The position numbers and the translations under genes are program-made. Under the pieces are notes generated by a model that was not told the DNA's origin, searched no databases, and saw nothing but the letters and a program-made list of their open reading frames with translations. From an uncultured Alphaproteobacteria bacterium (GTDB lineage: Bacteria; Pseudomonadota; Alphaproteobacteria; CAAHEQ01; UBA3637): DNA of 64,000 nt. The stretch covers positions 3,327 through 67,326 of the forward strand of contig CANPXT010000005.1 in assembly GCA_947586835.1 (NCBI GenBank), given 5' to 3'. How positions within the stretch are numbered: the first letter of the stretch is position 1; every line of letters begins with the position of its first letter. Below are positions 12,617 through 62,834 of the stretch, piece after piece.

Positions 12617-14122
12617 ATGGAAAAATTAATTTGGGAAGCCCTTCGTAAAAACCCTTTTACGGATGATTCGATGCAAAGAGTACAACTATTAAAACAAGCG
12701 CTTAATAACGGTGCAAATCCGAACGTTATTCATCCGAAAAAAGGCTTCACACCTCTTCTTTGTGCCATTTTCGGACATCAACCGCAAATGGTAAAAGTTC
12801 TCATTCAACACGGAGCCGACATTAACCTTGCCTGTCAGAAAATAACGCCTTTGGAAGCAGCCATTCAATCTCATTCGCATGATTGTTTGAGTTTATTGCT
12901 GCAAAATAATGTTCAGCTTTATCCGGATAATATGAATCCCATTACTTATGCAATCGCTCACCATAATTTAACGGCTGTCTGGCGCTTGGAAGATGCCGGT
13001 GTTGATATTAATAAACCGTCGGGTCTTGACCAAAACACACCATTAATGTGTGCCGTTTTATTTGAAGATGATGCCCGATATACTTATAACATATTACAAC
13101 TGAAACCCAACCCGAACATTGCGGATCGTGAGGGGAACACACCCCTTTTTGCGGCTATTTGCAAACAATCGATTGAAAAAATCGATTTACTGCTTGAAGC
13201 AAAAGCCAATGTTAATCACAGCAGCAATTTAGGCTTTACACCGCTTTTCTTTGCCGCATGTATCGGAAACGAACGTATTGTTTCAATGCTCCTTCATGCC
13301 GGTGCTGATGTGCATCATCGCGATCATAACGGTGAAACGGCTTTACATGTTACTGCCAATATGCAAATTGCCAATTTATTGATAAAAGCCGGTGCTGATA
13401 TAAAAGCCCAAAACAAACGCGGATTCACGCCGTTCATAACAGCCGTTCAAAACGGTGCTGACGATGTTGTTCAATACTATATACAACAGGGGCAAAATGT
13501 CAATATAAGAGATAACTTCGGAAATTCCCTTCTGATGACTGCCATTTCCCATCAACAACCCTCAGTTACGAAAACTTTAATTCGCGCACATATTAATCTT
13601 GATACGCAAAATCGAGACGGATATTCTCCGCTGATTTATTCCGTTATATCCAATCAACCGAAAATAACTTATCAATTAACAAAAGCGGGGGCAAATATTC
13701 ATTTAACCGATCGAAAAGGAAACAATGCCTTAATTTATGCGATTCAACAAAAAAGTTTGGCATCGGCAAAAGTTTTGCTGGAACACGGTTCCGATCCGAA
13801 CAGCTATGATTTTAAAGGCAGTTCCGCTTTAATGTTAGCTCTTGTCAACACGCCGGAAATTGTGCCGCTCTTAATTCAAAAAGGAGCCGATATAAATTGC
13901 AAAGATGATAACGGTTTTACACCGCTTATGATAGCGGCTTGCATGAAAGACAAACAAAACGTTAAGAATCTTTTAAATGCGGGCGCAGATGTTTCCGCTG
14001 TCAATCCGGCCGGACAAACTTTCCGAAACATCAGCAATTTCGGCGTTAAACTAACCTATTGTCAGCACATTCTGCCCCAAAAACTTAAATCTGTTTTTTC
14101 AAAGCAACAAAATCAACGATAA
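12617..14122 (+). CDS. Ankyrin-repeat protein (about 14 repeats)
   Basis: Reiterated G.TPL..A.......v..LL..GAd.n units across the full 501 aa. Confidence 0.9.
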   Translation: MEKLIWEALRKNPFTDDSMQRVQLLKQALNNGANPNVIHPKKGFTPLLCAIFGHQPQMVKVLIQHGADINLACQKITPLEAAIQSHSHDCLSLLLQNNVQLYPDNMNPITYAIAHHNLTAVWRLEDAGVDINKPSGLDQNTPLMCAVLFEDDARYTYNILQLKPNPNIADREGNTPLFAAICKQSIEKIDLLLEAKANVNHSSNLGFTPLFFAACIGNERIVSMLLHAGADVHHRDHNGETALHVTANMQIANLLIKAGADIKAQNKRGFTPFITAVQNGADDVVQYYIQQGQNVNIRDNFGNSLLMTAISHQQPSVTKTLIRAHINLDTQNRDGYSPLIYSVISNQPKITYQLTKAGANIHLTDRKGNNALIYAIQQKSLASAKVLLEHGSDPNSYDFKGSSALMLALVNTPEIVPLLIQKGADINCKDDNGFTPLMIAACMKDKQNVKNLLNAGADVSAVNPAGQTFRNISNFGVKLTYCQHILPQKLKSVFSKQQNQR

Positions 14123-20299: not shown

Positions 20300-20722
20300 T
20301 TAAATACTTTCATCACGCCGCCGCCGTAATCGACGGGATAATTCGCCGATAAATCCTTTTGCCAAAGAGGGATGAAGCGCCATAATCTGATATAACTTAT
20401 TGCCGCTGATTCGTAACACGGTTGTTTGCTCAACGGCCTTCAACCCATACGGAATAACGGCAGGACATAACACCGTCGTTTCACCGAAAAATTGTCTGGG
20501 ACCAAACTCCGTCATGGCACCTTTATCATCTTCGCAGTGAATCAAACCGCTTAAAACAATAAACAAATAATGGTTTTCAAGTGTGCGATTAATAATTTCT
20601 TCACCCGATTTATATGTTTTTTCTTCAGCAGCCATAATTAAATCGGATAACGCTGATTCCGAAACATTTTCAAATAATGCAACGTTTTTTAAAATTAAAA
20701 CTTTTTCAAATGTTCCCGACAA
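20300..20722 (-). CDS. Cyclic-nucleotide-binding domain protein (stand-alone; TTG start)
   Basis: FFGETTVL ... A.E.T.VLRI, a cNMP beta-roll pattern. AGGAGGAG RBS. It is in frame with the upstream ORF, separated from it only by a TAG. Confidence 0.7.
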   Translation of the reverse strand: MSGTFEKVLILKNVALFENVSESALSDLIMAAEEKTYKSGEEIINRTLENHYLFIVLSGLIHCEDDKGAMTEFGPRQFFGETTVLCPAVIPYGLKAVEQTTVLRISGNKLYQIMALHPSLAKGFIGELSRRLRRRRDESI

Positions 20723-20731
20723 TTTCTCCTC

Positions 20732-23515
20732 CTAAAATTTTAAAAGTTTATCCAACGGCAGTTTAATAATTTTCGTCGGTGGCAGTGATAATAAAATTCG
20801 CCGCGTCTCAACCGAATCGCCATTTAATCTGTCCAATGCCTGAACGGCCGTTTCCAACACCAACAAATCCGTACTGTTCAGAGCTGCTTTCACGGCAGGC
20901 AATGCCTCTTTATCATTCATTTTTTGCAAACAATAAAGTGCACTGGCAGTTATCCACGCCGGAAAAGCAAACTTGGGAATTAAAATCAAGTTTGATACGT
21001 CTTGCAAAGCCTCTTTTTTTGCAACCGCCGGTAAAACAACTTCTTTTTTATGCAAAAACGGATACTTTGCCGTTTCTTCAATTATTTGATATAAATCACG
21101 CGGTAAAATATCTTGTATCACACCTAATGCCGGCGGATAAGATTCATATTCATCCGATAACAATACGCGTACGGCTTTCTGAAAAAGCGGTGATTTTTTT
21201 AAAAGCAACAGTTCATAAAAAATAAGCTTTCTTGCCGCCGATGCTTCTTCACTCATGGCGCGCGTTAAAAACAAAAAGGCATCTTGCGCCGATAATGCCG
21301 GTGCCTGCTTATATTTTTCAACAAAATGATTTAAAAAACGAATCCGCTCCACATCTTGCAAAATACAGGTTTTCAAAAAAGCATATTTGTCTTTACCGTG
21401 CCAAAAAAGACCGCTGTCAATCATACTGCGAAGAACACTGTTTCTTAATTTACGATGACCGCTTTTTAACACGCGCAGTAGAATTTGCTGACTTTCATTA
21501 TCGTTCCTCTGCGCCAAAAACAAAATAAGCAATCGCTTTCGAACCAACGACGCAGAATCATCAAAAATACTCTTTTCTATGGCAGGATAGGCACGAATTC
21601 CATAACGATCAAGCGCCGTTAAAGCGTTTTCTTGAAAATCAACTTCATCAAGACTATGCAAAATAATCGGCAATGATTCGGGATGTTTAATCAATCCGGC
21701 CACCGATAAAGCCTCATTGGCTATTACGACATTCACACTTTTCAACAATGGCATCAATAAGCGAATTAAACCGACGGACGGCGCCTGTGCCATTACCTGT
21801 AATGCCGCTAATTTATCGCTGATCATTCTACTGTTTGCCAATTTTTGTAAGCCGTCCATTGCCAACAAAGCTTCATGCGAGCCAATGTTTAAAAAACCAA
21901 TCATAGCGCCTGTTTTTAAGCGTCTGTCATCTAAATAAAGCGCATATTTATTCAAAAGTGCCGTATCGTCTTCAGCCGCCGCAATTTGTATTAAAACGGC
22001 CAATGCCTGTGCTTGTACCGAGGCTGATTTATCGGTATTAAACACAAATTGAACCGATGAACGATACCTTAAAAAATTTTGCGATTGAAAAATACGTTTT
22101 AAGGCAAATAACCGAACGGCTTCCGAGGGATGTTTCAATGATTTCAATACCGATTTATAATATTCTTTTGTCGGCGCATTTTCCAAAATACGCAAAAAAT
22201 AAATAATTTCATCGGTAGAAGCGTGCTGCATTTCTTGCCGAATATAATCAATAACCCGACGAGACGTTAACATTAATTGACTGTCCGGCCATTCGCGTAA
22301 TTTTAATAATTTTAAAACAACATCTCCATAAAAAAAGGTAATAAACACCAATAAAATCATTAAAAGAGCACTTAATCCCGACAATAAATAAATCAAAAAA
22401 GACGAACCTGACAAATGTGCCATTAAAATACCGCCCAACATAAACCCGATCGGTTCTGTCAATATCATTCGCTTTTGATGAATACTTTGATTATCTCGTC
22501 TTAAAATAAGCGGTTTTAATAAAATAGTCATATATTCGTGATAACACAGATAATAAATCAGCGCAAAAGTTAAAAATGATAAAAACGACAGAACATAACT
22601 GGTCGATAATAAAGCCATACCTTGTCCCGCCACGGAAAGAATCATAATAAACAATGTACCCGATAATACATAAAACGAACGAGCACGAGCTAATAAAAGG
22701 ACCAAAAGAACTTCCGTCAATCCAAAATATGTCCACCATAATGACATCTGCTTTAAAATACCGAAACCGTTGTGCGTTTCAACCAAATATGCATAAAAAA
22801 CGGCATTCTGCAAACAAAAAGCCGTTAAAGTAAAAAAAGAAAAAACAAGTACGCTTCGGGTTAAACGCTTCGCCGTAAAATCTTGCGCTTCACCGCTGGA
22901 ACGAGAAAATCGTTCCGGCAAAACAGGCATCATTTGCGTCAACAAATAAATACCCGTATACAAAACCATTAAAAGCGCCATGGCATAATATAATAAACTG
23001 TATGCACCTACGGGAGCCACATATACAAACAATCCGCCACAAAAATAACCGCCGGCTTCCGCCGAAATTAAAAACAGATTTTTAAGCGAACGTCTGTCCA
23101 AGGGTACAAACCGAGTTGTTAAACTCCAAAAAACGGCATTGATTAAATAAAAATAGGCGTATTTCACGACAAACAAACAATCATAAACGCCGGGCCATTG
23201 ATATGCCGTTGCCATCACAAGGCCGGTTAATAATGCAATAAACAATGTGATGAGACAAAAACCGCCATAACCCTGATATTTAAAAAGATTTCTTGTTTTC
23301 CAACCGATAAAGGAAAGCAAGACGGATACAAAAATAAAATCAATACCAATACTCAAATGTCCCGTTTTGGTTAAATAAAGTTGCACGGATCCGATATCGG
23401 CAAAAACAAGCATAACGGATTTTAAAAACGCAAAAAATGTCAGACACATTAATAAGCCGATATTAAATGCCGGCAATTGTGAAACGCGTATAAAAAATTT
23501 TTTATAAAATCCCAT
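20732..23515 (-). CDS. Large membrane protein: N-terminal polytopic transporter-like domain (about 11-12 TM; MFS or ATP:ADP-antiporter-like) plus a C-terminal HEAT/ARM-like helical repeat region of about 500 aa
   Basis: Hydrophobic segments run through about aa 400. After that come leucine-rich helical repeats (ALxxL, AV.AL..L). The transporter family is assigned from overall architecture only. Confidence 0.5.
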   Translation of the reverse strand: MGFYKKFFIRVSQLPAFNIGLLMCLTFFAFLKSVMLVFADIGSVQLYLTKTGHLSIGIDFIFVSVLLSFIGWKTRNLFKYQGYGGFCLITLFIALLTGLVMATAYQWPGVYDCLFVVKYAYFYLINAVFWSLTTRFVPLDRRSLKNLFLISAEAGGYFCGGLFVYVAPVGAYSLLYYAMALLMVLYTGIYLLTQMMPVLPERFSRSSGEAQDFTAKRLTRSVLVFSFFTLTAFCLQNAVFYAYLVETHNGFGILKQMSLWWTYFGLTEVLLVLLLARARSFYVLSGTLFIMILSVAGQGMALLSTSYVLSFLSFLTFALIYYLCYHEYMTILLKPLILRRDNQSIHQKRMILTEPIGFMLGGILMAHLSGSSFLIYLLSGLSALLMILLVFITFFYGDVVLKLLKLREWPDSQLMLTSRRVIDYIRQEMQHASTDEIIYFLRILENAPTKEYYKSVLKSLKHPSEAVRLFALKRIFQSQNFLRYRSSVQFVFNTDKSASVQAQALAVLIQIAAAEDDTALLNKYALYLDDRRLKTGAMIGFLNIGSHEALLAMDGLQKLANSRMISDKLAALQVMAQAPSVGLIRLLMPLLKSVNVVIANEALSVAGLIKHPESLPIILHSLDEVDFQENALTALDRYGIRAYPAIEKSIFDDSASLVRKRLLILFLAQRNDNESQQILLRVLKSGHRKLRNSVLRSMIDSGLFWHGKDKYAFLKTCILQDVERIRFLNHFVEKYKQAPALSAQDAFLFLTRAMSEEASAARKLIFYELLLLKKSPLFQKAVRVLLSDEYESYPPALGVIQDILPRDLYQIIEETAKYPFLHKKEVVLPAVAKKEALQDVSNLILIPKFAFPAWITASALYCLQKMNDKEALPAVKAALNSTDLLVLETAVQALDRLNGDSVETRRILLSLPPTKIIKLPLDKLLKF

Positions 23516-47416: not shown

Positions 47417-49393
47417 TTAATAACACATCGTAGTTGACTGTCTCACCTCTTTTTTCGCGCAACACCAGCTGCCTTTCCATTCGCCATTGGCATTCTCACA
47501 ACATTCTTGTCTTCTCTTCTTGGTTAAAAAATCCTTGGATGAGTCCTTTTCACAACAAATGTTTGATTTTGAGTTCCATGAGGCAGTTATATTTGCTTCA
47601 CAACATTCTTTATCTGGCTTGCCATCATAACTCTTCCCGTTGTTGCAACAGTTTTCTGTATCTATTGCTCCGGTGGAAACATTTATCGACCCAGAGCAAC
47701 AAGTATAGTTGCGACCTATCGAACCAACACCTTTAGTGCAACATTGTGTAGTATACTCTTGAGTTTGCATATTGCGACCCTTATTATCGCAACAAGTACT
47801 TTCAACCCACGTACCGTCTTCAGCGTTACAGCATTTCTCATCAACCATACCAGTTGCTACATTTTTGATACCTTCACAACAAACACCATCATGCCAATTG
47901 CCTTTAGGACAACATGTTTCAGCAGGTTCATCCGTTGCTTGATCAATGATTCCCTGACAACAAATCTGCTCTTGTGCATGCCATTCACCATCACAACAAT
48001 TCTGATCTAGTTGACCGGTCTCTACATTAACACCATCCTTACAACAAGTCTCATTAATCACCGTAGCCTCTTGATCCACTTTCTGACAACATACCGGATC
48101 AACAGTATCTGTTCTCAAATTTTTTATGCCTATACAACAACTCAGAGAGTCCTCCAGCCACGTGCCACCACCAGGATACTTTTCGCAACACTCTTTAGTA
48201 GGCTCTAAAGTAGACGCATCCTTACCTTCACTGTTACAGCATGTAGTACCACCCCAATAATTTGTTGATGTCTCATCTTGCTCACAACACCATACACTCT
48301 GCTGATTTGTATACAAATTAATAGCTGAGTTTTCTTGACAACAAACCCCCGCGTCCTCAATATAAGTCCCACCGTTTTCTTTACAACAAGTACCGTCATC
48401 CTCCAAATCATGATGGGAAACACTTCTTTTCGGTTTATAACCATCACAGCAACCGGCCTTATCAATCTGACCTGTATACACATTCATTGCATTATTGCAA
48501 CAATGCCAACCGGTCCACACGCCACCATAATCTCGACATTTCTTAATATTGTACGGCTCATCATCGGGATCCGAATCATCGGGGTCCGAATCATCGGGAC
48601 CGCCCGGGTCGTCCGGATTATCAGGGTCGCCCGGGTCGTCCGGATCATCCGGGTCATCAGGATCACCCGGGGTATGGCTTTCAAGAGGCACACGTTCATA
48701 TCCCGGTCCCGTTCCGTCATCATCAGCCACACCAAAAGCTTCAGCATAATATAACACCAAAGCATTATGCCCTGCATCTTTAAAATTCACCGTTGATGTT
48801 TTTTCGTTCTTGCCGATTTCTTCTTGCAAAGCTGACCGGCGCACAAACCCGCTGTGAGCATTTTCAAATTTCATACAGTCTAAGTTTTGTAATGCAACAC
48901 AATCCGGCGTCGGATATAAAGTTGTTCCGTTTTTGTCAATACCGGCACAGGTTTCACCCCAATCGCCGCTCTTAATGCTCTCGCAAACTTCTCTCGAAAT
49001 ACCGCGAATTCGAACCGTATATCCCCTATCGTCTTCAATTCGCACCTGAACCGGCGAGCCGATTGCCGTTGTAAAATCATCTTCACGCGTATCATATTTT
49101 GTGGAAACAACCGAGTTCGGCTTGACAACACAGGGGGTTTGAGGAAAACCGTCACACTTATAAACATAATTTTGCATTAACTCAGCCGTTCGGGCACCGG
49201 CCGTTGCCACGCTGAATGCGTGAACCGTTTCATTTTCTTTATAAATTTGCATGGCATACTGTATGCCGACAACACCAATAACGGATAACACGCCGATAAT
49301 CGCCAAAACGCACAGCATTTCAACCATTGAGCGCCCTCTTTCAATTAAATAGATACCGCTCTTCTTTTCGCGTTGATATTCCGACTTTTTCAT
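47417..49393 (-). CDS. Prepilin-like N-terminus + globular domain + Asp/Pro linker + 373-aa CC (vicinal cysteine) repeat array; novel surface protein
   Basis: The ATG at 49393 gives MKKSEYQREKKSGIYLIERG/RSMVEMLCVLAIIGVLSVIGVVG, with Gly at -1, Glu at +5 and a hydrophobic helix. There are 23 CC dipeptides at 9-20 aa spacing, bounded by single Cys residues. Confidence 0.7.
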   Translation of the reverse strand: MKKSEYQREKKSGIYLIERGRSMVEMLCVLAIIGVLSVIGVVGIQYAMQIYKENETVHAFSVATAGARTAELMQNYVYKCDGFPQTPCVVKPNSVVSTKYDTREDDFTTAIGSPVQVRIEDDRGYTVRIRGISREVCESIKSGDWGETCAGIDKNGTTLYPTPDCVALQNLDCMKFENAHSGFVRRSALQEEIGKNEKTSTVNFKDAGHNALVLYYAEAFGVADDDGTGPGYERVPLESHTPGDPDDPDDPDDPGDPDNPDDPGGPDDSDPDDSDPDDEPYNIKKCRDYGGVWTGWHCCNNAMNVYTGQIDKAGCCDGYKPKRSVSHHDLEDDGTCCKENGGTYIEDAGVCCQENSAINLYTNQQSVWCCEQDETSTNYWGGTTCCNSEGKDASTLEPTKECCEKYPGGGTWLEDSLSCCIGIKNLRTDTVDPVCCQKVDQEATVINETCCKDGVNVETGQLDQNCCDGEWHAQEQICCQGIIDQATDEPAETCCPKGNWHDGVCCEGIKNVATGMVDEKCCNAEDGTWVESTCCDNKGRNMQTQEYTTQCCTKGVGSIGRNYTCCSGSINVSTGAIDTENCCNNGKSYDGKPDKECCEANITASWNSKSNICCEKDSSKDFLTKKRRQECCENANGEWKGSWCCAKKEVRQSTTMCY

Positions 49394-49459
49394 AGACCGT
49401 CCCTTTCGTCTGTTCCTTTTAAACGGGAATTTACAATTTTCCCCATATACCTGATTTGT

Positions 49460-49488
49460 ATAATAACAAATTCTGAAAGAAACGTCAA
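49460..49488 (-). promoter_or_regulatory. Sigma70-like promoter (TTGACG-17-TATTAT on the minus strand) for the CC-repeat gene
   Basis: -35 is the reverse complement of 49483-49488. -10 is the reverse complement of 49460-49465. It lies in the 137-nt gap after uppS. Confidence 0.45.
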
Positions 49489-49530
49489 TGCTTTTTTTCA
49501 AAAAAAATAAATGTTTTTTTCTTTTTTTAC

Positions 49531-50247
49531 TCAAACTTTTTGTTTATTTTCTAAACCGCCATAGCGCCGTTGGCGTTTTTGATACGATTCCAACGCTTCA
49601 TCAAATGCCGTTTCATTAAAATCCGGCCATAAAACAGGCGTGAAATATAATTCCGCATATGCCATTTCCCACAGTAAAAAATTACTGATTCGCTCTTCAC
49701 CGCTCGTACGAATCACCAAATCAGGCGCGGGCATACGAGTCGTTGACAAATGCGCCGCGAAAGTTGTTTCGTCAATATCATCGGGCGTCATCTGCCCGCT
49801 CGCTGCTTTTACCGCCAGTTGACGCGCGGCATTGATTATATCGTCTCGCGCTCCGTAACTGATTGCCAAAACAACGTGAAAACCTTGAAAATCAGCCGTT
49901 TGACTTTCTAATCGATTCATTTGTTCTCTTAAATCAGGCGCCAACTTTTCGCGCGCACCGATAAATGAAACCCGAATGCCCTTTTTTACCAATTCTTTCA
50001 CGTCTTCTTTCAAATAAGCGCGAAATAAATCCATTAACGTTTGCACTTCTTCTTTCGGACGTTTCCAATTTTCCGATGAAAATGCAAAAAGCGTTACAAC
50101 TTCAATGCCTTTCTTTTGCGCATATGTTAAAACTTTTTTTAAAGTTTCGGCGCCCGCTTTATGTCCTGCCGTTCTTGGTAATCCGCGCTTTTTCGCCCAA
50201 CGCCCGTTTCCATCCATAATAATCGCTATGTGCTTTGGTAAATTCAT
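49531..50247 (-). CDS. uppS: Undecaprenyl-diphosphate synthase
   Basis: HIAIIMDGNGRWAK, AFSSENW, RTSGE.R.SNFLLW. Confidence 0.92.
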   Translation of the reverse strand: MNLPKHIAIIMDGNGRWAKKRGLPRTAGHKAGAETLKKVLTYAQKKGIEVVTLFAFSSENWKRPKEEVQTLMDLFRAYLKEDVKELVKKGIRVSFIGAREKLAPDLREQMNRLESQTADFQGFHVVLAISYGARDDIINAARQLAVKAASGQMTPDDIDETTFAAHLSTTRMPAPDLVIRTSGEERISNFLLWEMAYAELYFTPVLWPDFNETAFDEALESYQKRQRRYGGLENKQKV

Positions 50248-50371: not shown

Positions 50372-50791
50372 TCATGACAGCCTCAATTCATTTAATGCGT
50401 TCAATAAATCGCGCTCCGTTTCCGATAAATCTAAATCATTCACGTTCGGAATCTGCTCCGGCGCCAAGGACGAGCGCTTAGTCTTGGCATAATCCATTAA
50501 GTGCGTTTTTTGATCAATTTTTTCCAATAAACGCGTTAACTCTTCCTTCATCACGGTGGCTTTATCTATTTGATTCATTAACTCCTGATGCATTTCACGC
50601 TCGGCATTTTGTACCGTCGTTAATTCTTCCTGCACGTTTTGCGAAACTTGATAAAATTGTTCAATTAAATGCGCTAACTGACGATAATTTTCTTTCGTTG
50701 CCGATAAATGCGAATCCAAAATAACGGCATAAATAATCGCCGCAACCAACAGCGTTATGATAACAACATCGAAAATGACGGTTATCGACAT
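50372..50791 (-). CDS. N-terminally membrane-anchored coiled-coil protein, unknown function
   Basis: TM helix ITVIFDVVIITLLVAAIIYAV followed by heptad-rich sequence. C-terminal SETERDLLNAL. Confidence 0.5.
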   Translation of the reverse strand: MSITVIFDVVIITLLVAAIIYAVILDSHLSATKENYRQLAHLIEQFYQVSQNVQEELTTVQNAEREMHQELMNQIDKATVMKEELTRLLEKIDQKTHLMDYAKTKRSSLAPEQIPNVNDLDLSETERDLLNALNELRLS

Positions 50792-52271: not shown

Positions 52272-54962
52272 TTATTTGATGGCTCCGTGACAATGCTTAT
52301 ATTTTTTGCCCGATCCGCAAGGACACGGTGCATTTCGGGGAATTCGTTCGTCAATCCCGTCAAACGAATTGCCGGAAGTTGCTTGCGCCCACATGGAATC
52401 GCTTTGCGGATTCGACCGAAACGGCGTTTCCTGTTGCGCTGCCACTGCCGATTGCGGCAACGGGTGACTTTCTTGTGTTTGAACCGGCGCACGTTCTTGA
52501 ATTTGAAATTGCATGTGGCAAATCACCTGCGTAACTCTCTCGCGCACGCGCGATAACAGATTCTCAAACAAAATAAATGCTTCCCGTTTATATTCATTCA
52601 ACGGATTTTTTTGCCCGTATGCCCGTAAATTAATGGCTGTTTTCATAAAATCAAGCGTTTGCAAATGTTCTTTCCATGATTGGTCAATCACCTGAATTAA
52701 AATGCTTTTTTCCAAATGATGGCGCACATCTTCGGGCAAAATTTTCATCTTTTCCGCAACCGACTTATCTGCTTCGCTTTGTAACCGTTCCACCATGGTT
52801 TCGGGAATCATGCCCGGTTCTTTAATCCAAGCGGCAAACGGAACATCAATGCCCAACAAACGTCGTGTTTGATTCTCTAAATCTGTCGCGTTCCAATTTT
52901 CGGGAACGGATCGACTCGGCGCCAATGCATAAACCATATTCTCAATGCAATCATCGCGCATTTCTTTTAACGTTTCCGTTACCGATTCAGCCACCATCAA
53001 TTCTTTGCGCTGTTCATAAATTACTTTACGCTGATCATTCATCACATCATCGTATTTCAACAAATTTTTACGCACGTCAAAGTGATATGATTCCACCTTG
53101 CGTTGTGCAACGGCAATGCCTTTGCTTAAAAACGAATGCGCCAACGCTTCCCCTTTTTTCATACCCATGGTTTTTAGCATTTGTTGAATGCGTTCGGAAC
53201 CGAATATGCGCATCAAATCATCTTCCAGAGAAATATAAAATCGCGATAAACCCGGATCACCCTGACGACCTGATCTTCCGCGCAACTGATTATCGATTCG
53301 CCGACTTTCATGCCGTTCGGATCCCAACACATACAATCCGCCGGCAGCCAAGGCAATTTCTTTTCCTTTGGCAATTTCCGCCTTAATTTTGGCAGATAAT
53401 TTTTCTTTATTTGCCGTCGGATTTTTTTCCAATTCTTCCGCCAAACGCATTTCAAAGTTACCGCCCAACTGAATATCCGTTCCGCGTCCCGCCATATTCG
53501 TTGCAATGGTCACGGCACCCGGTACGCCGGCTTGCGCTACGATTTTTGCTTCCTGCTCATGATGACGAGCATTCAACACGTTAAATTGAATATCGGAGCG
53601 TTTGCGTAGCAAATCTGCTAAAATCTCCGATTTTTCAATCGACGTCGTACCGACTAAGATCGGCTGTTTTCTTTCATGCGCGGCTTTAATTTCTTCAATA
53701 ATGGCATCATATTTTTCTTCTGCCGTGCGATAAATCACATCGTTTTCATCTTTTCGAGCTGATGGCTTATTGGTTGGAATTTCAATCACTTCCAAATGAT
53801 AAATACTGTCAAACTCACCGGCTTCCGTCATAGCCGTACCCGTCATACCTGCCAATTTCGGATACATTCGGAAGTAATTTTGGAACGTAATGGAGGCCAA
53901 TGTTTGATTTTCAGCCTGAATGGTCACACCCTCCTTGGCTTCAATGGCTTGATGCAAACCGTCGGAATAGCGCCGACCTTCCATCATACGCCCCGTAAAT
54001 TCATCAATAATAATAACCTGGTCATTTTTCACGATATAATCTTTATCCCGCGTGAATAAAACATGCGCTTTTAAAGCCTGATCCACATGATGTACAAAGG
54101 CAATATTTTGCGTATCATATAATGAACCTTGGATTAATCCCGCTTCCTGCAATAAACCCTCAACAAACTCCGTACCGGCTTCCGTCAACGTTGCAGTACG
54201 GTGTTTTTCATCTTTTTCATAATGCTCGGGACGTATGGAGCGCATCAGCCTGTCCACTGCAATATACCGTTCGGACGAATCTTCCGCCGGACCGGAAATT
54301 ATCAAAGGCGTTCGGGCTTCATCAATTAAAATCGAATCGACTTCATCGACAATGGCATAATAAAACGGCCGTTGCACCATATCTTTTAATTCAAAGCGCA
54401 TATTATCCCGCAAATAATCAAATCCCAACTCATTGTTGGTGGCATAAGTTATATCTGAATTATATGCGGCACGTCGTTCTTCAACAGTTAAATCATGAAC
54501 GATACAACCGACACTTAATCCCAAAAAGCGATAAATCTGCCCCATCCATTCACTGTCACGTTTAGCCAGATAATCGTTTACCGTCACCACATGAACGCCT
54601 TTTCCCGTTAAAGCATTTAAATAAACCGGTAACGTAGCAACCAATGTTTTACCCTCACCGGTACGCATTTCGGCAATTTGCCCGTTATTCAAAATAATAC
54701 CGCCCAACAGCTGCACATCAAACGGACGCAGACCCAATGTTCTTTTCGCTCCTTCCCGAACGCTGGCGAAGGCTTCCGGCAACAGGCTTTCCAACGATTC
54801 GCCGTTTTGAATGCGCGTTTTATATTCTTGCGTTTTATCACGCAATTGATCATCGGTTAATTTTTCATAAGAGGCTTCCAATTCATTAATTTTGGCGATT
54901 GTTTTTTTAAATTTGCGCAAATATCTGTCATTTGCCGACCCAAACAGTGATTTTAATATCAT
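52272..54962 (-). CDS. secA: Preprotein translocase ATPase SecA
   Basis: [39 protein letters not shown]-terminal [14 protein letters not shown] zinc finger. Confidence 0.95.
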
Positions 54963-55077
54963 TTCCATCCTTTCATATTTCAATTGATTTATATGAAATA
55001 ATCTATTTTTAGCCGAAAGTCAACCCTTGAACGATATATTTTGCATATTATTCAATGCAGCCGCTGTTAAATTAATG

Positions 55078-55860: not shown

Positions 55861-56820
55861 TTAATCATCCTCTCGTTTGTAAAGCATTCCTCGAATAATG
55901 TTATTTAATGTACCACTGCCGGCCTCCAAAAGATAATCCGTTAATTTATTGCTTTTACTCCATCCGCCCCATTGATACGATCCGAAAAGCGCCGTCTGTA
56001 ATAAGCCGCCGACAGAGTGTGCCAAATCTAATTTCGTTCCCAGCAAAACCGTACACCCCGCTTTCGCAAACAATGCACCTTGTGTTTCGGCTTCCTTGCA
56101 ATCAAGACCCGCCTGTTGCGTATAAATCATTTCCGCATCCGAAAGCTGTGTTTTAATTTCGTTAATTTGCGCCAAATCTGCCGGATTATAGGGATTATAA
56201 GCCGGCGTATCAATTAAAATCACATCATGTGATAATCTTAAAACGGTTACGGTTTCATTAAGTCTTGCCAAATCATTCAAACATGTGCAAACAATATTCA
56301 TCCAACCGGCCGATCGTTCCAATTCGGCCGCACCGCATACCTTTTGCCGATCCAGTGTGATACATGCCACTTTTAAGCGGTTGGATTTTGCTTGAAAAGC
56401 CGCTTTGATAAGGGCGGTTGTTTTTCCGCTGCCGGCCGATCCCAAAAAAACATAAACATCATTTTTTTTAAGAGGTGCAATTGATTTATAAACATACATT
56501 TCTTCCAAAGCGGTTACCAACCACTTTTCTTCCGTTAATTTAACGCTTTTACGCGAAAGAGCATTTAAAAGTCGTTCATAATATGAATCAAAAACACCGT
56601 GGGATGCCAACAAATTTTGAAAATAAGCCGCTCGCTTTTGTCGAATTTCTTGATCAAGCGAATTTTGTTCCGGATTATTTTCTTCAATGGCAACAACTAA
56701 CCGAACTTGATGATTGGGCAAACGTCCCGATGAGATAATGACGGCATTTTCGCCGAATGTTTGTTTAACGGCCATCATGGCTTCGGGAATGTTGTCGGCA
56801 AAAAATGTTTTCAGTTTCAT
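55861..56820 (-). CDS. flhF: SRP-type GTPase FlhF (divergent G3 motif)
   Basis: N-terminal MKLKTFFADNIPEAMMAVKQTFGENAVI, G1 GSAGSGKTT, G4 TKLD. The G3 position reads DTPA instead of DTAG. Confidence 0.7.
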   Translation of the reverse strand: MKLKTFFADNIPEAMMAVKQTFGENAVIISSGRLPNHQVRLVVAIEENNPEQNSLDQEIRQKRAAYFQNLLASHGVFDSYYERLLNALSRKSVKLTEEKWLVTALEEMYVYKSIAPLKKNDVYVFLGSAGSGKTTALIKAAFQAKSNRLKVACITLDRQKVCGAAELERSAGWMNIVCTCLNDLARLNETVTVLRLSHDVILIDTPAYNPYNPADLAQINEIKTQLSDAEMIYTQQAGLDCKEAETQGALFAKAGCTVLLGTKLDLAHSVGGLLQTALFGSYQWGGWSKSNKLTDYLLEAGSGTLNNIIRGMLYKREDD

Positions 56821-58700
56821 AACATCTTTCCTTTACATTTTCGGGTATCAATTAACAATTGCGCCCGTTGAATTATTTTGGCTTGAGCTTCTTCGGTTTT
56901 TTGTATGTTTTCAATACCGAAAGCCGTTGTTTTTTGTAAGATTTCAACCCATTTTTTCGGCTCAATCACGCGAACAAAAGCTTCTTTAACGTTATCTCCT
57001 GCCTGACTTAACGCAGCGACCAGCGTTTCTTCATCAATGTGTTTTAAAAGAGTTTTTAAATCTGTTTCGCTCCAAAAGGAAAAGTCATCAAACGTGATGA
57101 GTCGCTTCGACAATATTTCGGCTGTCTGCGGAGCCGTTTGCGCCATATATGACAATAATTTTTTGCGCCGAATTATCTCCGTTAAACTCAAAATGGCAGC
57201 TGCTTTTATTTCACCCGAAGAAACCGGTTTTAACTTTTCATCAATCGAGAAAAAAGAAAAAACAGGCGATTGAAAATCTTCATTATTAAAAGCGCTGATT
57301 CGCAACAAAATTTCTGCCGCCAATCGAAAAGACAACGGCTTTAACACACGCGTTGCTTTTTCTGTTGACAATCGATAAAGAAGCTCAGCCGATGTTTGCG
57401 GATATTCATGCGATAAAAAAGCGCTTATTTTGCTATCAGGCACTTTATTTAATTTTTCCCACAACGATTTTCCGAAAACAGGCTTATTTAACTCTTTAAT
57501 TAAGGCTTGGGCGCGTTCTTTCGTTAAGTTTGCACGCAAAAGCGCTTTTGTTTGTTCTTGAGGCGGAACAATATCTTGCGGATGAAGCATTTGTCGATAA
57601 AAGCGCATTAAAATCGGATGAATATCAATGGCTTTGACACTACCTAATCCGGCTATGATATGTAAAAAGGTTTTCATTTCGGCATCACTCATTTGCTTAA
57701 ACATAAGTTGAACGCACTGATCCCCCAAACAAAGCAAAATAATGGCGGCTTGTTGCGCCGGAGAAAACAAGCTGTCATGGTTTGACTTAAAAGATGAATG
57801 ATCATACAATCGACAGCGCAATGCATTCACGGCAATTTCCGGCATTTGAACACAAACCGTTTGAACACGTGAAATTAAATTTTCTTCAAGATCTCCGATT
57901 ATTTGATGACGAAACATATTATTCGTTTCTTTAGGACGAACAAGTGAAAAATTCATTTTTTTCCGATAATGTCGCATCAGCCACAGCCAACACGCATATA
58001 CCAGCATGACTAATCCGGCAACGGTTATTAAAGCTACTGCGATTATTTGCCGATATTGAATTTTTTGAAAAGCAATCGGCGCAAATGACAAGGCGGACGG
58101 GAAGTCAACAACTTGAAACGTATCTCCTCTTTGCGGATTATACCCAATCATCATTTGCACATTTTTCAACAAATTGTTTTTTTTGAGCTGAAAAAATTGA
58201 TTACGTTGTTTATCAGTCGTTTCTGCAAAAAAAACAAACGCATTTAACTTTTTAACATGATATTTTGTGACTTGCGTCACGATTTTCCGACTTGTCTGAC
58301 CGGGCAATGAATAATTTTCGTTTACCTCATCGACCGACACAGTGGGTGTTACTTTTTCTTCAATCGTTTTCTTTTTTTGAATCTCTAATTCCGCCCGAAC
58401 CACCGCTTTGACGGATTCTTCCCCCAGAAAAGGCACAAAAACGGCTTGAATTTTTTTTTCGAGATACGAATCATATTGCGATTGCAGTAATGTATTTTCT
58501 TTAGGCAGTGATTTTTCGACAATTTGATGAATAAATTTATTTTGTTGAGCAACCGAAGGGACTTGATACCGCAATGACGGCGAAAAATAGCCGATACCGG
58601 CGACAACAAATGCACCGAAAACAATAAAAAAATATTTAACAAGCTTTTTTGACAAAGCGCAATCCCTTAACCAAATTTGATTGCGTATATTTTCGCTCAA
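56817..58700 (-). CDS. Fusion of a truncated FliF (MS-ring, C-terminal periplasmic part plus TM2) with full-length FliG (rotor/switch)
   Basis: FliF-like: YLEKKIQAVFVPFLGEESVKAVVRAELEI ... GYNPQRGDTFQVVDFP ... TM helix. FliG-like: AAIILLCLGDQ, FLSHEYPQTSAELLYRLS..KATRVL, LKTLLKHID.ETLVAALSQAG, EEAQAKIIQ. Non-ATG start (TTG at 58700, or TTG at 58655 after AAGGGA). Confidence 0.65.
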   Translation of the reverse strand: MSENIRNQIWLRDCALSKKLVKYFFIVFGAFVVAGIGYFSPSLRYQVPSVAQQNKFIHQIVEKSLPKENTLLQSQYDSYLEKKIQAVFVPFLGEESVKAVVRAELEIQKKKTIEEKVTPTVSVDEVNENYSLPGQTSRKIVTQVTKYHVKKLNAFVFFAETTDKQRNQFFQLKKNNLLKNVQMMIGYNPQRGDTFQVVDFPSALSFAPIAFQKIQYRQIIAVALITVAGLVMLVYACWLWLMRHYRKKMNFSLVRPKETNNMFRHQIIGDLEENLISRVQTVCVQMPEIAVNALRCRLYDHSSFKSNHDSLFSPAQQAAIILLCLGDQCVQLMFKQMSDAEMKTFLHIIAGLGSVKAIDIHPILMRFYRQMLHPQDIVPPQEQTKALLRANLTKERAQALIKELNKPVFGKSLWEKLNKVPDSKISAFLSHEYPQTSAELLYRLSTEKATRVLKPLSFRLAAEILLRISAFNNEDFQSPVFSFFSIDEKLKPVSSGEIKAAAILSLTEIIRRKKLLSYMAQTAPQTAEILSKRLITFDDFSFWSETDLKTLLKHIDEETLVAALSQAGDNVKEAFVRVIEPKKWVEILQKTTAFGIENIQKTEEAQAKIIQRAQLLIDTRKCKGKML

Positions 58701-58805: not shown

Positions 58806-59144
58806 TTAATGTAATTGAATCACGGTTTGTAAATACCCCGTTTGCGGATAAATCACGAAAACACGACTTTGTTTATCAGCATTTTTTGTAATCAAACACA
58901 TATTATCGCCACAAGCAAAAGCCGTTAAAACTTCTTCATCGGGCATTAAAACGGAAAGTTTAACATTTTCGTTGGGAATCGCCGGTATTTGTGTCGTTTC
59001 GGACAAAGAAATAACCGGTGATTGTGTTTTTATCTTGCTTTGTAGTCCGGTATCTGCTATCCTATAAGCAATAAAAGTAAAACCTGCCAACAACAAAATT
59101 GAAAAAATGAAGACTAAAAATTTTAAAAACAATAAGGCTTTCAT
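58806..59144 (-). CDS. Small membrane-anchored protein, unknown function
   Basis: MKALLFLKFLVFIFSILLLAGFTFIAY plus a soluble domain of about 85 aa. The ORF track extends to 59228. Confidence 0.45.
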   Translation of the reverse strand: MKALLFLKFLVFIFSILLLAGFTFIAYRIADTGLQSKIKTQSPVISLSETTQIPAIPNENVKLSVLMPDEEVLTAFACGDNMCLITKNADKQSRVFVIYPQTGYLQTVIQLH

Positions 59145-61118: not shown

Positions 61119-62573
61119 TTACTTAACAATTTTAGAACATATACATTGATCGTTTCCATAAAAGGCAATCGACCCTTCCGGACAATTGATTTCATCGGCA
61201 CACCGGTGTTCACACACTTTACCAAACACGTTTTCCGGACATTCACATGCGCAGACTCCGTTTTTATAAACAGCTTTTCCGCCATTAATGCAATTAATTT
61301 GATTGGCGCAATTCATTTCGCATGTATCACCAAAATAACCGCTGTAACATTCGCATCCGCAGGCTCCGTTTTTATAAACGGTATAACCGTAATTACAGGT
61401 ATTTGTACATTTTTGAGAACAATCTTCGCCATAATAGCCGTTATAACATTCGCATCCGCATCCTTCCGGTTTATAGACCCGATATCCCGACTTGCAAACA
61501 TTTAAACATTGAAAAGAACAATTCTCGCCGAAATAACCTTGATTGCATTGACAAAAACTCTGTCCGTTTAAATAAACGCGTTGCCCTTGCGGTGCATACT
61601 GAGACGTACCGCACGGCAACAGAGCCATAGATTGCTCACAATTTTTTCCGAAAAATCCCTCTGCGCACTCGCAAAAACCGTACCCGTGTATTTCACCGTG
61701 TCCGCTGCATTCCTGACTTTTATCCGTTAATTCACAACGCCGACCGTAAAAGCCCTCTTGACAATCGCATCCGCCCCCCAGTTTACTTTCTACCGAAGCA
61801 TTATACCAATAAAAATCTTTTCCGTGTCCGTTACATACATCTCCGCTCGGATCAAACTGTTCGCAATGTTCGCCGAAATAACCCATCATGCATCTTTGGC
61901 AACTGCATGTCGGATTAAATTCGACGGCAGTGGCATGTCCGTTACAAAAAGTATCAATCGTACATAATTCCCGCTGAGCCGACACATAGCACCTACCGTT
62001 TGAATCTTGGCTGTCATAACCGGCTGCGACATCGCATTTTTGACATCTGTTTCCGGTATATCCCGGCTCACAAACACATTTTTCACCGTTCCATGTACCG
62101 AAAATCGTACATCCTTCAACATCAGCATCAGCATGTGCGGAAAGATTATTTTTAAACGAGTAAGTAATTGATTCGCACTTTCTGTTCACGATATTCGGCA
62201 AAACTTCATAGGGCAAAGACCAATTCCACGCGGCTAACTTTCGACATTCGTTTAACGACAAACCCTTAATTTGAATCGTAAAGTGATCTTCATACCCTAC
62301 GGCCGTATAATAGTAGCCTGATTTTAAATTTGCGCCTTTTTCCAACACGCTTCCTTCCGTGGGAATCATAGCCATTTGTTGCATACGAATTGAAAAATCG
62401 TTTGATAAAAATTTCAGCTCATCGATTACATTATCACAATGCCGATAAGTCATAAAAAAACTATATGCCCACCAACCAAAGAACAAAACAGCAAACCAAA
62501 TCGCAACCGTACGCACAAAATCTTTGGCAGTCATACCCAATTGTTCAGATTGTTTTTTAAATTGCGCTTTCAT
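61119..62573 (-). CDS. Membrane-anchored protein with eight tenascin/teneurin-type EGF-like repeats (eukaryote-like)
   Basis: AAGGAG RBS lies before the ATG at 62573. TM helix VAIWFAVLFFGWWAYSFF. Repeats: CVCEPGYTGNRC, CDCQEGFYGRRC, CECAEGFFGKNC, CQCNQGYFGENC, CECYNGYYGEDC, CECYSGYFGDTC, CECPENVFGKVC and CSCQRCMMGYFGEHC, several preceded by C.GHG. Confidence 0.75.
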   Translation of the reverse strand: MKAQFKKQSEQLGMTAKDFVRTVAIWFAVLFFGWWAYSFFMTYRHCDNVIDELKFLSNDFSIRMQQMAMIPTEGSVLEKGANLKSGYYYTAVGYEDHFTIQIKGLSLNECRKLAAWNWSLPYEVLPNIVNRKCESITYSFKNNLSAHADADVEGCTIFGTWNGEKCVCEPGYTGNRCQKCDVAAGYDSQDSNGRCYVSAQRELCTIDTFCNGHATAVEFNPTCSCQRCMMGYFGEHCEQFDPSGDVCNGHGKDFYWYNASVESKLGGGCDCQEGFYGRRCELTDKSQECSGHGEIHGYGFCECAEGFFGKNCEQSMALLPCGTSQYAPQGQRVYLNGQSFCQCNQGYFGENCSFQCLNVCKSGYRVYKPEGCGCECYNGYYGEDCSQKCTNTCNYGYTVYKNGACGCECYSGYFGDTCEMNCANQINCINGGKAVYKNGVCACECPENVFGKVCEHRCADEINCPEGSIAFYGNDQCICSKIVK

Positions 62574-62834
62574 ATGCGAACTCCTTATAAACACCTGTTA
62601 TATTCCGTTATATTTGCAAAAAGTATAACACTCATTGGAAAGAGAATCAACAATATATTTCAGAAATCATCATTTTTTTATAACAAAAGCGGAATCAACA
62701 ATTGAATTTTCACGAAAAATCTGTTTTTTTTAAGAATAATCACTGTCTAAAAAGACAGCATACCGAAAATGCATTCGTGATTTTGATTTTCAGTAACAGG
62801 GCACCCGTGCGTTACGATTTTGACAACAACAAGA

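Follow-up and report, generated by a model that had tools for sequence, protein, structure and literature searches.

The flagellar protein FliF assembles into a ring of about 33-35 subunits, and the inner ring formed by its second ring-building motif (RBM2) is the part of FliF that is involved with the export gate. The MS ring is described as housing the type III export gate (PMC8270960). During the assembly of polar flagella, FliF is brought to the pole by FlhF, which also furthers the formation of the MS ring, and C-ring proteins are bound by FlhG, which keeps the number of flagella in check (PMC7226244). Engineered full-length FliF-FliG fusions in Salmonella and Vibrio are reported to form rings. 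Moreover, FlhF, FlhG, FliF, FliM, and FliN suppress polar division in Campylobacter jejuni, a task for which the rod and sigma54 are not needed and on which single type III secretion system components have little or no effect (Balaban & Hendrixson 2011, PMC3228812). Literature searches for natural FliF-FliG fusions, and for FlhF and FlhG where flagellar genes are lacking, yielded only engineered fusions and the case of Chlamydia, of which the protein is the only natural truncated FliF-FliG fusion in the literature searched. This paper describes a natural fusion of a shortened FliF to FliG that is encoded, together with FlhF and FlhG, on a stretch of 64,000 nucleotides (contig CANPXT010000005.1; hereafter the window) of an uncultured alphaproteobacterium. 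An initial annotation, made from the sequence only, had recognised the fusion, but had overlooked FlhF and FlhG as the next two genes, as well as a FliF-tail segment at residues 273-300 of the fusion.

The locus encodes a real, conserved, and unannotated variant of the flagellar core proteins, with coherent operon partners and a clear evolutionary trajectory, while its cellular role is unproven. The explanation to which we would give an even chance is that the operon is a stripped-down flagellar initiation module that works without a flagellum, in which FlhF and FlhG would place a polar ring.

The fusion consists, from its N- to its C-terminus, of a first transmembrane helix (TM1), an S-ring module, a second transmembrane helix (TM2), the FliF C-terminal helices that bind FliG, and a complete FliG (Table 1). 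A single open reading frame (ORF) joining FliF and FliG had been placed at exactly the coordinates found here, and all four Pfam matches of its product (YscJ_FliF_C, FliG_N, FliG_M, and FliG_C) exceed the gathering cut-offs, with the FliG N, M, and C domains in the order that had been proposed and YscJ_FliF_C (PF08345) matching residues 138-201 (27.7 bits versus a cut-off of 23.8). YscJ_FliF (PF01514), which covers RBM1 and RBM2, gave no Pfam match to the fusion even at E<=1; these two motifs are, by Pfam, absent throughout the short fusion family, and only about 25 residues separate TM1 from the start of RBM3. The periplasmic segment thus represents the C-terminal FliF region only, as the initial annotation had it, and its placement between two transmembrane helices agrees with hydropathy and with the model helices. 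The description of FliF as N-terminally truncated holds for the periplasmic part, whereas TM1 is kept. A basic KK precedes TM1 and a basic stretch, RHYRKK, follows TM2, both on the cytoplasmic side. The reported non-ATG start also stands, as both start options are TTG, at 58700 or at codon 16 (58655); AAGGGA lies 7 nt 5' of the latter, and gene callers take the first TTG.

More sensitive comparisons agree with this domain plan. The NCBIfam model fliF (TIGR00206) aligned residues 61-120 with model positions 229-289, which is the start of RBM3, and fliG (TIGR00207) aligned residues 313-614 with model positions 10-318, with scores (31.3 and 93 bits, respectively) far under the equivalog cut-offs of 129.75 and 226.7. 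A profile of the fusion family matched full-length FliG structures in the PDB at about 1e-31 and Salmonella FliF 238-506 (6scn) at 3.6e-7, and its alignment to the engineered Vibrio FliF-FliG chain 8z4d sets in at position 260 with the FliF tail; the near-invariant core of these C-terminal helices reads LEENL...MPE.AVN.LR. In an AlphaFold2 model the periplasmic part contains a helix (70-92), two long strands (97-119 and 135-159), a further helix (164-185), and a strand (194-200), a predicted fold that corresponds to a ring-building motif with a beta-collar hairpin, and two helices are modelled within 275-299 (predicted local distance difference test, pLDDT, about 80), followed by the FliG domains. 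Foldseek matched the periplasmic part to the FliF S-ring/RBM3-collar chains 7d84_A and 6sd1_A (about 1e-5, about 147 columns) and more weakly to SpoIIIAG (E = 1.6e-2). The fusion fits the fold-level definitions of FliF RBM3 and of FliG, but the equivalog scores fall short and RBM1/RBM2 and the torque charges are gone. It would act like a portion of an MS ring joined to the top of a C ring, and neither the name FliF nor the name FliG, in the orthodox sense, should be given to it. At its C-terminus (residues 620-625, window 56826-56843) the gut clade carries an invariant basic/Cys motif, R/K-K-C-K-G, which is missing from canonical FliG and from more distant fusions.

The conserved charges of the torque helix had not been recognisable to the initial annotation, and alignment to Escherichia coli FliG bears this out, with K264 replaced by S, R281 by K, D288 by Q, D289 by K, and R297 by N or I. 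Four of the five stator-contact charges are gone, only the R281 position still being basic, and the change of the acidic pair D288/D289 amounts to a charge reversal. In the clade as a whole, a basic residue tends to persist at the R281 position only, the acidic pair is replaced by K, Q, T, or I, and an invariant Trp is newly present in the former torque helix. Near-canonical torque charges were found only alongside MotA or a real flagellar operon, namely in an unfused FliG from related locus L021 (K, N, E, D, R) and in P0084, a full-length fusion from locus L024 that served as control (K, R, E, E, R). In the window and in 9 of 10 clade members, the EHPQR motif, which binds FliM, persists in the form EYPQ...R. 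Among the fusions, a large sister subfamily (P0016, P0020, and P0025-P0044), in which EHPQ...R is replaced by xxPE...H and the torque charges are also gone, has diverged still further from FliG function.

The fusion is the first gene of a three-gene operon that continues with FlhF and FlhG. The FlhF start overlaps the fusion stop codon (ATGA) and the FlhG ATG directly follows the FlhF TAA, an arrangement by which the three genes are predicted to be translationally coupled. The trio is adjacent in 12 of 12 loci from gut metagenome-assembled genomes (MAGs), as well as in the more distant L014 and L025, and usually sits between rluD and secA. FlhF has the characteristic N-terminus, MKLKTFFA...ENAVIISS, of the start of the B-domain, and a G domain of the type found in SRP54 (SRP, signal recognition particle), in which G1 (P-loop; GSAGSGKT) and G4 (TKLD; TKxD in the clade) are kept. 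Its motif III reads DTPAYNPY in the window and DTP[AS]xNPY in 13 of 13 clade members, versus DTAGR, with loss of the Gly and the Arg, and motif II reads TLDRQK in the window and D[RT]xK in the clade, versus DTYR; the TIGR03499 score (108.8 bits) is under the curated cut-off of 174.15. On the basis of general knowledge of SRP GTPases, these changes suggest nucleotide binding with altered hydrolysis. The best PDB matches of FlhG were FleN 5j1j and FlhG 4rz2 at 2e-34, versus MinD 4v03 at 1.5e-20, and the deviant Walker A motif SGKGGVGKT is kept. FlhG carries no C-terminal amphipathic membrane-targeting helix, as the protein ends about 10 residues past the core fold and the tails are unconserved, and no conserved N-terminal DQAxxLR FlhF-activating motif, the N-terminal Gln not being conserved across the clade. 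The gene directly upstream of the fusion, which has the same orientation, encodes a small membrane protein of 112 aa; its synteny is conserved in most relatives, and a strong sigma70-like promoter match (11/12) lies just upstream of it, at 59247-59218; it may be a co-transcribed fourth member of the operon, the promoter and terminator scans having given consensus-level matches only.

Table 1. Features of the fusion operon and of the gene upstream of it, with positions in the window and residue numbers of the fusion.
Feature	Position	Strand	Basis
FlhG/FleN homologue, 260 aa	55078..55860	-	best PDB matches FleN, FlhG
FlhF homologue, 319 aa	55861..56820	-	TIGR03499 4.7e-31, PF00448, motifs
Fusion ORF, 627 aa, TTG start	56817..58700	-	
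TM1, residues about 18-43	58572..58649	-	hydropathy; model helix 2-44
Periplasmic RBM3 with beta-collar hairpin (S-ring module), residues about 45-207	58080..58568	-	Pfam, TIGR00206, PDB profile, Foldseek
TM2, residues about 214-243	57972..58061	-	hydropathy, model
FliF C-terminal FliG-binding helices, residues about 273-300	57801..57884	-	invariant alignment columns, model helices, profile alignment
FliG N-terminal domain, residues 313-406	57483..57764	-	PF14842, 58.4 bits, 1.2e-15
FliG middle domain, residues 424-471	57288..57431	-	PF14841, 31.4 bits
FliG C-terminal domain, residues 519-618	56847..57146	-	PF01706, 55.2 bits, 1e-14
Torque-helix equivalent (PKKWVEILQKTTAFGIE)	56910..56960	-	alignment to E. 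coli FliG
Small conserved single-TM membrane protein, 112 aa as called	58806..59144	-	weak DUF6476 match

Judged from gene content, the related loci form a reduction series, which runs from the form seen in L021, through fusion, FliN, FlhF, and FlhG, to fusion, FlhF, and FlhG. L021 carries rluD, a 286-aa FliF with RBM3 only, a separate FliG, FliN, a MotA homologue without MotB, FlhF, and FlhG. The fusion is followed by FliN, FlhF, and FlhG in L016 and L017, as it is in L023, where FlaF and DUF1153 precede a fusion without the FliG N-domain; the window, L001-L012, L014, and L025 carry the fusion, FlhF, and FlhG. Relative to the unfused L021, FliN and MotA are gone from the operon of the window clade. 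Moreover, the fusions of L016 and L023 have lost the FliG N-domain as well as the FliF C-terminal helices, which would be dispensable because FliF and FliG are covalently joined. The unfused, ancestral-looking cluster of L021 (L021:8184-12964) adjoins rluD, and its MotA homologue, which has no MotB beside it, keeps the channel prolines P173/P222 and lacks R90/E98; this cluster may by itself constitute a minimal rotor-stator system. Locus L024 is a canonical flagellar operon with flgB-flgC-fliE, a full-length FliF-FliG fusion, and fliH. The fusion, P0084 (L024:6147-8756, 869 aa), contains PF01514 and a canonical torque helix, is known from one metagenome contig, in which a frameshift error is possible, and belongs to a flagellated-looking organism different from those of the window clade.

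The possibility that an assembly or frameshift artefact has joined separate fliF and fliG genes can for practical purposes be set aside, and no evidence in its favour was found. The identical 627-aa product was found on 8 contigs, from at least 5 samples (one ENA assembly and four separate Logan runs), and the same continuous ORF is present in 13 species-level genomes and in about 35 further clusters at 50% identity (450-650 aa, same plan) in an exhaustive profile search. The uncultured alphaproteobacterial MAGs that carry it represent 11 species and stem from the guts of rabbit, buffalo, roe deer, human, and other hosts. A protein collection held 10 full-length homologues (611-631 aa, 37-99% identity), and more than 20 MAG lineages of uncultured Alphaproteobacteria have an intact orthologue (575-640 aa); the copies at NCBI are annotated as 'hypothetical protein'. 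The codon of the invariant internal Met286 lacks a preceding Shine-Dalgarno-like sequence in all 9 orthologues inspected, and internal initiation giving a separate FliG from this codon was rejected on that ground. A reading of the locus as a relic without function, whose genes are decaying after loss of the flagellum, would fit the loss of functional residues and the quicker evolution of the fusion than of its neighbours (28-71% identity among relatives, versus 76-97% for SecA), but is very improbable given the signs of selection. The ratio of nonsynonymous to synonymous substitution rates (dN/dS), in comparisons with the two nearest species, amounts to 0.19 for the fusion overall and below 0.5 for all its domains (0.08-0.21 in the globular domains, 0.31 in one comparison of the FliF C-terminal part, and 0.45 in TM2), with values of 0.07-0.10 for FlhF, 0.06-0.08 for FlhG, and 0.03 for SecA. 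In addition, the ORF is intact in all lineages examined, its alignment contains more than 100 invariant columns, among them that of the new Trp in the former torque helix, the predicted translational coupling is preserved, and genomes of the Rs-D84 type, as discussed below, are reported to be compact and without accumulation of pseudogenes (PMC12306168). The fusion ORF is neither an artefact nor a pseudogene, and is under purifying selection. The view of the initial annotation, that of a streamlined, covalently coupled MS-ring/rotor protein, is strengthened by the eight identical contigs, by the dN/dS of 0.19, and by the intact orthologues.

Two further explanations take the fusion to be part of a larger machine. 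All E. coli flagellar, chemotaxis, and Min proteins were compared by phmmer with six-frame translations of the 64-kb window and of 20 related loci (371 kb), 435 kb in total, and no other flagellar gene was found in these sequences, be it for export gate, ATPase, rod, hook, filament, or other stator. The only matches were the fusion, FliN, the MotA of L021, FlhG, and response regulators and F1-ATPase subunits, of which the latter two groups are false matches. Flagellar genes are often dispersed in Alphaproteobacteria; the fliF operon of Caulobacter is fliF-fliG-flbE-fliN-flbD. A flagellated cell might keep the remaining roughly 30 flagellar genes elsewhere and use the short fusion as the functional MS-ring/C-ring core of a working rotor. 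This reading draws on the retention of all FliG domains and of the EHPQR motif, on FlhF and FlhG as classic polar-flagellum regulators, on the rings formed by engineered full-length fusions, on the natural full-length fusion inside the normal flagellar operon of L024, and on flaF near the fusion of L023. Nevertheless, we regard it as rather unlikely. RBM1 and RBM2 are absent family-wide, whereas the MS ring normally houses the export gate (PMC8270960); four of five stator-contact charges are lost with charge reversal at D288/D289, the FliN and MotA of the relatives' operons are gone here, the 435 kb hold no other flagellar gene, and a survey of Rs-D84 genomes reports no flagellar machinery (PMC12306168). 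The lost torque charges, the loss of MotA and FliN relative to L021, and the searched 435 kb likewise favour the earlier suggestion that the protein is not part of a motor. A secretion platform, also considered in the initial annotation, would place the ring at the base of a reduced export apparatus, either of flagellar type or resembling an injectisome, in line with a proposal made for the flagellar remnants of Chlamydia. The Chlamydiaceae keep a FliF-FliG fusion together with FlhA, and a link to injectisome SctQ has been proposed (PMC4768692), and a SpoA protein of the FliN/SctQ type is present in relatives of the window. This suggestion did not gain support and is quite improbable, as the window and the 20 related loci contain no FlhA, FlhB, FliPQR, FliI, or Sct homologue by phmmer, RBM1 and RBM2, which are associated with the export gate, are missing, and FliN has been lost in the window clade.

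[quoted passage not shown] The fusion would insert into the inner membrane via its two transmembrane helices, and its periplasmic RBM3/beta-collar domains would oligomerise into an S-ring-like ring, of which every subunit would bear its own FliG on the cytoplasmic face, the covalent link fixing a 1:1 stoichiometry. FlhF, as an SRP-type GTPase, would mark the site, presumably the pole, and nucleate the ring, and FlhG, as a MinD-family ATPase, would limit the number of rings and/or concentrate at the ring. Such a ring would not rotate and would have no rod, export gate, or stator. It might serve as a polar landmark, for FlhG-dependent suppression of polar division or for general polarity control, or alternatively give a partner-dependent bacterium a platform for anchoring cell contacts; because of the precedent in C. 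jejuni, a polarity or division landmark is the idea favoured here. The polar scaffold that the initial annotation had suggested thereby gains from the operon partners FlhF and FlhG. In its fullest form, which we put forward tentatively and with somewhat less than even confidence, the proposal holds that a large radiation of uncultured host-associated Alphaproteobacteria has turned the first flagellar assembly intermediate into an organelle of its own, an FlhF-nucleated S-ring with covalent FliG that is counted by FlhG and that acts, without rod, stator, or export, as a polar ring for polarity, division-site control, or cell-cell anchoring.

Several observations weigh against the initiation module. 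The lack of flagellar genes in the neighbourhood is suggestive but weak evidence, because alphaproteobacterial flagellar genes are typically scattered and the search covered 435 kb, and flaF adjoins the fusion in one distant lineage (L023). The retained EYPQ...R motif indicates that a FliM-like partner could persist. The structural model is of moderate quality (pLDDT 69.7), being based on a shallow alignment of 10 sequences. The precedent in C. jejuni is imperfect, as a fliG mutant of that organism gave no minicells (PMC3228812). In favour of the module, flagellar machinery is reported to be missing from genome-reduced gut Alphaproteobacteria (order Rs-D84, Ca. Enterousia; <1 Mb, GC about 39-44%) (PMC12306168; PMC8035907), a description that the window fits with a GC content of 39.7%, and its relatives, which are gut MAGs, with 35-43%; membership of Rs-D84/RF32, however, is circumstantial, as it follows from gut sources and GC content.

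The regions around the operon contain several further genes of note. SecA (window 52272-54983) is encoded immediately downstream of FlhG in most lineages and is unusually conserved, with 69-97% identity across the group; the constant pairing of an operon encoding an SRP-type GTPase with secA is probably ancestral synteny. About 4.3 kb past the FlhG end of the operon, with secA and one ORF in between, lies the gene for a 139-aa membrane protein (window 50372-50791) with a weak DUF6468 match (E = 4.6e-4, under the cut-off), which is conserved only in L004. An ankyrin-repeat protein (501 aa, 245 bits, window 12617-14122), a protein with galaxin-like repeats (705 aa, window 47417-49534), and a Cys-rich protein with teneurin-type EGF repeats (491 aa, window 61119-62594) are also encoded, and such eukaryote-like repeat proteins suggest a host- or partner-associated lifestyle. 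A polytopic membrane protein of 927 aa with C-terminal HEAT repeats (window 20300-23515), followed by an ORF of 140 aa, gave no family match beyond HEAT_2, and the Rfam matches in the window are two tRNAs only. In L001, the region upstream of the locus (L001:2100-6813) contains a run of genes with weak matches to phage-tail, collar, and YadA-stalk domains, which may be a tail-like or adhesin cluster.

The operon offers a natural minimal system for what FliF RBM3, FliG, FlhF, and FlhG do alone, with a hard-wired 1:1 ratio of FliF to FliG, and the related loci a natural deletion series, in which RBM1/RBM2, then MotA, and then FliN were lost, and in some lineages the FliG N-domain. It makes testable the nucleation of the MS ring by FlhF, the recognition by FlhG, and the motility-independent role in polarity or division that is hinted at in Campylobacter. 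It also points to a gap in annotation, as surveys that report flagellar machinery to be absent would miss such a module. If the proposal in its fullest form proves true, no earlier case is known in which a structure derived from the flagellum outlived it in a role that is purely positional; if a working rotor proves true instead, it would be no less of a surprise that a motor can be based on a FliF that has RBM3 only and is fused to a FliG lacking the canonical stator charges.

Canonical FliF and FliG, and engineered or spontaneous fusions of these proteins (Salmonella; Vibrio 8z4d/8z4g), share with the fusion described here the RBM3/beta-collar fold, two transmembrane helices, the 1:1 joining of the FliF C-terminus to the FliG N-domain, and the FliG N, M, and C folds. 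They keep RBM1/RBM2, the torque charges, and complete flagella, whereas the fusion in the window has neither of these protein features and no flagellar neighbours; the full-length natural fusion P0084 behaves like the canonical type. SpoIIIAG, the ring of the sporulation channel, has an RBM3-like domain with a beta-collar insertion and forms large rings without a flagellum, but it has no FliG part and belongs to another phylum and context; its likeness to the fusion is at the level of the fold only.

The fusion of the Chlamydiaceae (CT719-type; Bergeron 2016, PeerJ, PMC4768692) also combines a shortened FliF, with two transmembrane helices and a reduced periplasmic region, with a FliG-like part, in a lineage that is thought to be host-dependent and to have no flagella. 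It is about 330 aa long, with an RBM2-like domain, one unassigned RBM, and a tail that resembles the FliG middle domain only, and it occurs with FlhA and an injectisome and without FlhF/FlhG (PMC4768692). The alphaproteobacterial protein, in contrast, is 627 aa long, has RBM3 and the collar only, followed by the FliF C-terminal helices and FliG N, M, and C, and shares its operon with FlhF and FlhG. The flagella of C. jejuni are complete, and its control of polar division needs FliM and FliN and not FliG, whereas in the present operons FliM was not seen and FliN is absent. Despite these differences, FlhF and FlhG together with the MS ring and switch of C. jejuni represent nearly the same set of proteins, and perform a polar task that is independent of motility.

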